Made by a program: the position numbers and the translations under genes. The notes beneath the pieces are model-generated. The model saw only the letters and a program-made list of their open reading frames with translations, did no database searches and was not told the DNA's origin. A stretch of 64,000 nucleotides of DNA from Promethearchaeota archaeon (GTDB lineage Archaea > Asgardarchaeota > Lokiarchaeia > Sigyniarchaeales > SOKP01), in NCBI GenBank assembly GCA_013375475.1, contig JABXKD010000002.1, positions 50,313-114,312 of the forward strand, in the 5' to 3' direction. Of the stretch, positions 59,782 through 60,456 are shown piece by piece (within the stretch, counting starts at the first letter, position 1; every line of letters begins with the position of its first letter).

Positions 59782-60456
59782 TTATTCTATTATCGATATA
59801 TAAAATTCATATGCTTCTTTAGCAACTTCTTGTTCATATCCGGAATAGAAATGATCTGCTCCATCGATTATTCTATACTTTTTTGGTTCTAAGTAGAAAT
59901 TATAATGGTTCTCAAAATTTTCATATCTCGCCAAATTATCTCGATTTCCTTGAATAAATAATTTAGGTTTTTCACTTTGAGAAAAATTTTTGTATTCTGG
60001 ACCCATAAAGTCCCATGGAAAAGAAATAGCACAATAACCAATAATTGTTTTAGAATAGTTTACTGCAGAACACCCTATAGCAGCACCATAGGAATAGCCG
60101 AGGATCAATATTTTTTCACATTTTTGCTCGTTTACAAGAAAGTTAATACAAGCTTTCGTGTCACTTAATTCACCCATACCATTAGAATGATCTCCTATAG
60201 AATTTCCAACACCCCTGAAATTAAACCGTAAGCATGAAATATTATTTTGGGTAAAATGATTAAAAATACCAGATACTACATTATTATACATGTTGCCCCC
60301 GTATTTTCCCTTTTTAGGGACTTAAATCCCGCAAAATTGAGGATGCGGGTGGCAGACTAAAGTAGCGATAGGGAAATTTTCTAAACTTGATAGAAATAAC
60401 TCTGTTTCAAGTCTAATATTATTATTGTTTATGAATATTTTTTCAGTACTACGCAT
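59782..60456 (-). CDS. Alpha/beta hydrolase (HPHP-GG family) split by a 33-nt BHB intron (213 aa after splicing)
   Basis: Exon 1 MRSTEKIFI...LVCHPHPQ and exon 2 YGGNMYNNVV...RFNFRGVG.S...GYSYG...GNRD...ADHFY. Confidence 0.88.
60305..60337 (-). other. Putative BHB mRNA intron (33 nt, in-frame TAA)
   Basis: Outer helix TGCC(A)CCCG-C-A/T-A-CGGG-GGCA, central TCCT/GGGA, bulges CAA and AAA, inner TTTT/AAAA plus GGGAT/GTCCC hairpin. Confidence 0.85.

Follow-up and report, generated by a model that had tools for sequence, protein, structure and literature searches.

Does an Asgard archaeon interrupt a protein-coding gene with an intron of the kind that is excised from tRNA precursors by the splicing endonuclease EndA? 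The question is raised by a window of 64,000 nucleotides (nt), the whole stretch of DNA analyzed here, from a Promethearchaeota archaeon (Asgard, Loki-type). On its minus strand lies a gene for an alpha/beta hydrolase that is split by 33 nt within the conserved HPHP-x-YGG motif. Unless another locus is named, positions are those of the window; G000 denotes the host genome (3.92 Mb in 288 contigs, 32.5% G+C), other G numbers denote genomes of relatives, and L numbers fetched loci. As judged from sequence comparison and predicted RNA structure, the insert is in all likelihood a real EndA-type mRNA intron in the hydrolase coding sequence; it is very probably removed from the mRNA, a splicing event that we infer from the lines of evidence given below.

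The sequence and coordinates of the insert and of both exons, as proposed in an earlier note on this DNA, were confirmed on the minus strand. There, CAU CCU CA (60343..60338) is followed by the insert (60337..60305) and then by A UAC GGG GGC (from 60304), so that the gene consists of the following parts.

60338..60456, minus strand: exon 1, ATG and 38 codons, ending in ...CHPHP and then CA of the split Gln codon.
60305..60337, minus strand: intron of 33 nt, consisting of base 3 of bulge 1, the inner hairpin, GGGA, and bases 1-2 of bulge 2, with an in-frame TAA.
59782..60304, minus strand: exon 2, the last base of the split codon, 173 hydrolase codons (YGGNM..., with the GYSYG nucleophile elbow), and the stop codon.

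Exon 1 amounts to 39 codons and exon 2 to 174. Without splicing, the open reading frame (ORF) that starts at ATG 60456 encodes 44 amino acids and terminates at the TAA within the insert, and a second ORF of 169 amino acids runs from ATG 60291 to the stop at 59784..59782. Exon 2 matches the Pfam families Abhydrolase_11 (7.3e-09) and Hydrolase_4 (3.2e-08) above their cut-offs; as both matches begin at profile position 12, exon 2 lacks the N-terminus. Exon 1 alone matched no family in the profile search. The alignment to a solved homologue, 3trd_A (E = 8.6e-28), runs unbroken across the insert site. The predicted spliced product is a hydrolase of 213 residues with a contiguous HPHP-Q-YGG, and the host protein combines fold-domain matches, the GxSxG elbow and the HPHP-x-(Y/H)GG motif of alpha/beta hydrolases, among which its structural relatives are PDB 3trd, 2i3d, and 2fuk.

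In the genus, the gene was found in 39 of 42 genomes, at 40 loci, and the stretch from the last base of exon 1 to the first of exon 2 was extracted at each. At 25 of the 40 loci an insert occupies the identical site; 18 of these inserts measure 33 nt, four measure 31 nt, and three measure 30 nt. Each of the other 15 loci has precisely one codon there, mostly CAA. One codon is also found in 7 insert-free loci from other families of the order and in 62 more from a scan of species-representative genomes, which took in other Promethearchaeota, Desulfobacterota, Chloroflexota, one Bathyarchaeota metagenome-assembled genome, and others. The HPHP-x-YGG motif is unbroken in all 84 insert-free homologue loci. 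The inserts cannot be translated through: an in-frame stop codon is present in each of the 21 whose length is a multiple of three, and the remaining four, of 31 nt, shift the frame. One relative, G010, has two copies of the hydrolase gene (L009 and L049), both insert-free.

One explanation of these data would be that the gene is simply broken, with nothing functional made from it, or with only the truncated 169-residue ORF expressed from ATG 60291. Both ORFs are indeed open separately, and gene callers would annotate two genes. Still, the insert has been kept at one site in 25 loci across three clades, and both exons bear the marks of a working gene. Exon 1 adjoins the hydrolase body directly upstream in every orthologue, being contiguous with it in the insert-free ones (tblastn), and all 22 insert-bearing loci inspected retain its Met start, its unbroken frame, and the terminal CHPHP. 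The median ratio of nonsynonymous to synonymous substitution rates (dN/dS) in exon 2 is 0.162 for 160 insert-bearing pairs vs. 0.199 for 85 insert-free pairs, and the GxSxG elbow is kept in 24 of 24 insert-bearing orthologues. For exon 1, the corresponding ratio of observed differences (pN/pS) is 0.587 with the insert and 0.468 without it, values that are rough, as the fixed 39-codon register ignores internal gaps in some rows. Both exons can be taken to be under purifying selection. Moreover, in the 3trd_A alignment, a protein started at the internal ATG would begin after the first strands and retain only half of the most conserved motif. We consider a broken gene very unlikely.

The predicted RNA fold of the insert and its flanks contains the elements of a bulge-helix-bulge motif.

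60340..60343, minus strand: 5' strand of the central helix, UCCU, from the His-Pro codons CAU CCU; its partner is GGGA at 60307-60310.
60307..60310, minus strand: 3' strand of the central helix, GGGA, within the intron.
60337..60339, minus strand: bulge 1, CAA, unpaired in the minimum free energy (MFE) fold, with the predicted cut between 60338 and 60337.
60304..60306, minus strand: bulge 2, AAA, with the predicted cut between 60305 and 60304.
60311..60336, minus strand: inner helix and loop (h'), UUUU/AAAA and then GGGAU/GUCCC round a 4-nt loop.
60344..60354, minus strand: 5' strand of the outer (exon-exon) helix, from Cys-His-Pro-His codons; its partner is 60294-60303.
60294..60303, minus strand: 3' strand of the outer helix, from Tyr-Gly-Gly-Asn codons.

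On each side, the strand order is flanking helix, 4-bp strand, and 3-nt bulge, the order known from tRNA introns. The MFE fold of 60285-60360 on the minus strand has an energy of -24.6 kcal/mol (z = -2.67), with equally good folds in 2 of 200 shuffles, and contains UCCU/GGGA and the CAA bulge, together with the inner hairpin and 4+4+2 bp of exon-exon helix. According to the portion of PMC2738675 that deals with cleavage, the cut lies between the second and third bulge residues; this rule, applied here, removes exactly 60337..60305 and rebuilds CAA. Among the orthologues, bulge 2 is AAA or AAG, and predicted cuts after bulge base 2 yield a sense codon and a contiguous family motif in all 25 loci. 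The codon specifies Gln (CAA or CAG) in 24 of them; in L038, where exon 1 ends in GA, it is the Glu codon GAA. The earlier note had proposed a bulge-helix-bulge intron with cuts at CA^A and AA^A that restores the motif and joins an otherwise orphan exon. Its proposal is strongly supported by the 25 loci with and the 15 loci exactly without the insert, by the untranslatability of the inserts, by covariation, and by the presence of genes for EndA and for the ligase RtcB.

The pairing was evaluated on a 25-row alignment of the orthologous inserts and their flanks (A2; 24 distinct rows, 21 pairs, 504 cells). Standard pairs make up 90.3% of the cells vs. 41.8-68.7% with the partners slid by 1-3 columns. 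Changes on both sides of a pair were counted in 24 cells vs. 7.0 in shuffles, a number reached by none of 500 shuffles, and compensatory changes affect 6 of the 21 pairs. The inner helix has 89.1% of its cells paired, with both-sided changes at 4 of 8 pairs; in the outer helix, the figures are 87.0% and 2 of 9. All four pairs of the central helix are invariant in 24 of 24 rows, as are the first inner pairs and the ends of the insert (CAAUU... and ...AAGGGAAA), while the body of the hairpin varies with compensation. Covariation in orthologues, which the earlier note had named as a check, thus is seen in the inner hairpin, with conserved pairing overall and an invariant central helix.

Several points weigh against an intron. 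As the central helix never varies, it offers no covariation evidence, and the close kinship of the 25 sequences makes the shuffle statistics overstate the support. The outer helix is not fully paired: beside the 3' bulge it has a single A-U pair and then a C.A mismatch, and its pairs 9-67, 13-64, and 16-61 are unpaired in 10, 6, and 8 of the 24 rows, respectively. Moreover, Pro and Gly codons suffice to account for much of its pairing. In each of the 25 loci, the strict bulge-helix-bulge fold is less stable than the MFE fold, by 2.0-5.1 kcal/mol; the central helix forms with a predicted probability of just 0.10-0.61, and in most loci the MFE is a symmetric fold with 2x2 internal loops. Finally, RNA coverage stops short of the intron: four metatranscriptome contigs from three runs, searched on 59300-61000, cover 59613-60078 only and contain no joint. 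These contigs are neutral, speaking neither for nor against splicing.

The earlier description of the motif as canonical is consequently to be narrowed. UCCU/GGGA between two 3-nt bulges is there, with all central pairs standard; one of these, however, is U.G, the outer helix has its C.A mismatch, and the strict fold is above the MFE. At the 3' bulge, the MFE fold opens a 2x5 internal loop, because the mismatch follows a lone A-U pair. The outer helix is only partly of the strict hBHBh' form and fits a slightly relaxed one.

Two further claims of the earlier note concerned composition and alternative structure. The segment had been called strikingly GC-rich, which is an overstatement: the insert has 12 G+C out of 33 nt (counted) vs. 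0.325 in the genome, and the value of 0.467 over the 60-nt stretch 60290-60349 is matched at 59480-59539. The local G+C stems from the His, Pro, and Gly codons of the exons. The hairpins CCCGCA/UGCGGG and UCCCU/AGGGA, proposed as a conformational switch controlling splicing, do exist in the host sequence, but both can be formed in only 2 of the 25 loci, the host locus and that of its nearest relative. The alternative fold is less stable than the bulge-helix-bulge fold (-21.0 vs. -22.4 kcal/mol), and the predicted pair probability of its first helix in the host sequence is 0.0017. We dropped the switch and take the alternative hairpins as by-products of runs of G and C.

All genomes involved are metagenome-assembled, and one could attribute the insert to an assembly or sequencing artefact, or else suppose that it is removed at the level of DNA. 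The insert recurs, however, in 25 independently assembled genomes from several projects, having diverged with compensatory changes; nothing points to a rearrangement of the DNA, and what has been conserved is a fold of the RNA. The probability of this explanation is close to negligible.

We then return to the intron and to the enzymes that would process it. Two EndA-family genes, 200 and 202 codons long, lie on G000:C215 and G000:C133 of the genome; they score 99.1 and 70.4 bits with PF01974 and 112.8 and 96.5 bits with TIGR00324, above the cut-off of the latter in both cases. Aligned with fused two-repeat enzymes, one corresponds to their C-terminal (catalytic) half; the other corresponds to their N-terminal (structural) half and also has a weak match to a beta-subunit model. 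Read against what we take to be the catalytic triad Tyr-His-Lys, the first keeps the His at the expected place and the second lacks it. As stated in the part of PMC5829648 concerned with these enzymes, Asgard archaea have an (alpha-beta)2 EndA with a loop that gives it a broad substrate range, and (alpha-beta)2 enzymes accept relaxed forms of the motif. The two genes appear to fit this type. The expected exon-joining ligase is encoded in the window itself.

14480..15952, minus strand: rtcB, expected exon-joining ligase (PF01139, 2.4e-168, 560.7 bits, at G000:C211:64795-66102).

The proposed course of events is the following. The gene would be transcribed with the insert, and UCCU of the last codons of exon 1 would pair with GGGA at the 3' end of the insert, leaving the CAA and AAA bulges on opposite strands, 4 bp apart. 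Flanking the bulges would be the intron hairpin and a helix in which Pro codons (CCN) of exon 1 pair with Gly codons (GGN) of exon 2. The two-subunit EndA would cut after base 2 of each bulge, RtcB would join the exons, rebuilding CAA (Gln), and probably would also circularize the 33-mer. The spliced mRNA would then yield the 213-residue hydrolase with HPHP-Q-YGG, and the unspliced RNA only the 44-residue peptide.

The hydrolase gene is not alone in being interrupted. In the host genome, the gene for aIF2-gamma carries a 30-nt insert (G000:C33:22268-22297, minus strand, equivalent to L169:1369-1398) that splits the P-loop as GHVDHG|KTT and has the bulge-helix-bulge geometry of the hydrolase insert, with AUGG, bulge, 5-bp helix with loop, CUAU, and bulge. 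The aIF2-gamma model (412 positions) is matched by exon 2 from position 23 onward (2.6e-156) and by the end of exon 1 at positions 5-21. The host genome has a single copy of the gene. Judged by the length of the open frame, the 39 genus genomes with a match comprise 12 in which aIF2-gamma is interrupted directly ahead of exon 2, 25 in which it is uninterrupted, and 2 in which a contig end cuts it. Of 17 relatives whose junctions were retrieved, 10 have a frame-shifting insert of 29 nt, 6 have none, and in 1 the contig ends before the junction; the 29-nt inserts show compensatory changes in the hairpin. The distribution differs from that of the hydrolase intron, G012 having the aIF2-gamma insert only and G008 the hydrolase insert only. 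As an essential gene is broken in the same way, there is a strong argument that these organisms splice such inserts out, and the reading of the hydrolase gene as broken is disfavored further by this single-copy counterpart. The aIF2-gamma protein also has an N-terminal extension of ca. 100 residues (L169:1400-1771, minus strand, G000:C33) with a weak match, below the cut-off, to the RadA/Rad51 helix-hairpin-helix (1.1e-09), which is unusual for aIF2-gamma.

A third case is rtcB of two relatives, G015 and G001, which is split by 29 nt between residues 103 and 104 (GGVGY|DINCG).

L165:1637-1665 (G015:C2) and L166:1585-1613 (G001:C295), minus strand: rtcB inserts, UUGG, bulge, 9-bp hairpin, CCAA, and bulge.

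A cut after the second bulge base restores the frame here as well. The insert was not found in other genomes: a full-length rtcB runs across the site in 34 of the 39 others that have a match, and in G047 and G050 the match crosses the site before the contig ends. In G009 and G049 the matches begin downstream of the site, and the state of rtcB can be read in neither. All three inserts lie in the most conserved motifs of their respective proteins. Their occurrence among species is patchy and differs from insert to insert, a pattern suggestive of repeated precise loss, or of gain or transfer. On balance, we favor the view that the genus carries a small population of EndA-type mini-introns of about 30 nt in at least three protein genes, those of the hydrolase, aIF2-gamma, and RtcB.

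Short hairpin-forming inserts with stop codons in conserved coding sequence are also known as bypass elements, from phage T4 gene 60 and the yeast mitochondrial byps. By analogy, the ribosome could hop over a stop-bearing hairpin of about 30 nt that stays in the mRNA. The hydrolase insert resembles these elements in being short and hairpin-forming, with an in-frame stop in 21 of 25 loci (all those with a length that is a multiple of three), and an unspliced mRNA would be compatible with the RNA contigs, which end before the intron. It differs from T4 gene 60 and byps in lacking matched take-off and landing codons: in all 25 loci its 3' end is GGGAAAA or GGGAAAG, with no copy of CCU or CAA, the codons ahead of the insert. 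What is invariant instead is the geometry of an EndA substrate, a 4-bp helix between two 3-nt bulges, and the EndA cut rule yields the right codon at 25 of 25 hydrolase sites and at the aIF2-gamma and rtcB sites. Bypassing seems highly improbable to us, and an intron remains the preferred explanation.

The host genome was also scanned for further introns of this kind, defined by a 4-bp helix between two 3-nt bulges with flanking pairs, whose removal joins open frames that are separated in the unspliced DNA. The intron length was limited to 14-120 nt, and at least 30 open codons were required on each side and at least 120 in all. Among 3854 candidates in 3.92 Mb, the hydrolase site was the best by constrained energy per base (-22.6 kcal/mol constrained, 2.2 above its own MFE), and after further filtering it ranked 1st of 1934. 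When the junction peptides of 391 further candidates were read by eye, aIF2-gamma alone stood out. The two introns in this genome are a lower bound, since the scan misses short exons, long introns, and relaxed motifs. Two other candidates, C177 (74 nt) and C278 (63 nt), have good folds, but their first exons match no family and lack homology support. A candidate of 40 nt in C233 (L128:438-477, minus strand, G000:C233:29337-29376) was rejected as an intron, because TPR sequence continues through the stretch in the next frame; what separates the adjacent TPR-repeat ORFs is a plain 1-base frameshift, whether a sequencing error, a pseudogene, or a programmed shift. Origin as a mobile repeat was likewise discarded: in the 3.92-Mb genome, the strict pattern of the intron ends matches the hydrolase site only, and a looser pattern gives 54 matches, none in a similar context.

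We mapped the presence of the hydrolase intron onto two quick single-gene trees, one of the hydrolase (46 rows; L029 dropped as too short) and one of RtcB (40 rows; G050 dropped as too short, and G003 without a match). The intron state needs four changes on either tree. A clade of 19 genomes has the 33-nt form, with the insert-free G012 nested within it, and a second clade has the 30- and 31-nt forms; G013 and G021, with inserts of 30 nt, are placed among insert-free genomes. All forms of the insert were taken as homologous, because their ends and site are common to all. Precise losses, or allele exchange between species, must have occurred. Such trees give no order of the gains and losses.

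A natural object of comparison is the intron of cbf5, reportedly described first by Watanabe et al. in 2002. In the sections of PMC2738675 (2009) and PMC7714728 (2020) that treat mRNA introns, cbf5 figures as the only coding mRNA with a confirmed bulge-helix-bulge intron in archaea, besides a 5' untranslated region (UTR) case in Haloferax. The likenesses are several. The cbf5 intron, which occurs in Crenarchaeota (Desulfurococcales and Sulfolobales), is likewise bulge-helix-bulge(-like) and located in coding sequence; its predicted cuts are between bulge residues 2 and 3; its hosts have a hetero-oligomeric EndA; it interrupts a catalytic or most-conserved motif, in cbf5 by splitting the codon of the catalytic Asp; and its patchy occurrence among related species is read as gain and loss, all as far as PMC2738675 covers these points. 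By contrast, the host here is an alpha/beta hydrolase rather than a pseudouridine synthase, and the phylum is Promethearchaeota (Asgard). The motif is near the strict form, while most cbf5 motifs are termed 'unconventional' in the relevant part of PMC2738675, where splicing of cbf5 is confirmed by cDNA; splicing of the hydrolase mRNA is predicted. The hydrolase intron is thus of the same kind as the cbf5 intron, not the same intron.

The Haloferax case, HVO_1309 of H. volcanii, is likewise an mRNA cut by the splicing endonuclease at bulge-helix-bulge sites, according to the portion of PMC7714728 describing it. Its intron is in the untranslated 5' UTR leader, whereas that of the hydrolase interrupts the reading frame, and for this reason splicing would be needed to make the protein at all. 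The bulge-helix-bulge introns of archaeal tRNA and rRNA share with the hydrolase intron the motif and the presumed EndA and RtcB; the hydrolase intron differs in residing in an mRNA. Such introns abound in Asgard tRNA genes, as noted in the pertinent parts of PMC11291895 and bioRxiv 10.64898/2026.10.13.758758. In the full texts searched, which included few subscription journals and excluded supplements, there was no report of such introns in Asgard protein genes, and the Asgard intron papers found concern tRNA genes. The hydrolase intron is new as to phylum and gene, and apparently one of several in the genus.

Other features of the window are briefly as follows. The gene nadC (60507-61367) is divergent from the hydrolase gene, its start being 50 nt from the hydrolase start codon. 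The other neighbors, at 59365-59775 and 57690-59286 (both on the plus strand), comprise a Roadblock/LC7-like protein (weak match, 0.00099), a Metallophos_2 phosphoesterase, and a long membrane ORF. A tRNA-Tyr gene at 1786-1879 (plus strand; Rfam tRNA, 58.5 bits over 1786-1876) is 94 nt long as predicted by ARAGORN and, given this length, very probably holds an intron of its own. A tRNA-Lys at 495-569 scores 31.3 bits only.

If these mini-introns are spliced, protein genes are interrupted in Asgard archaea, the closest known relatives of eukaryotes, and their expression depends on RNA splicing, carried out by the enzymes of tRNA splicing and not by a spliceosome. The hydrolase intron illustrates that codons (CCN for Pro, GGN for Gly) can provide the exon half of a splicing motif. 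Splicing would also mean that gene callers mis-annotate such genes as two fragments, and that the patchy distribution within one genus is a natural system for the study of intron gain and loss. In the relatives with a split rtcB, expression of the ligase would depend on RtcB itself, a self-dependent loop in which the mRNA of the ligase needs the ligase. If all this is true, gene expression in relatives of the eukaryotic ancestor would include mRNA splicing by the tRNA-splicing machinery as an obligatory step.

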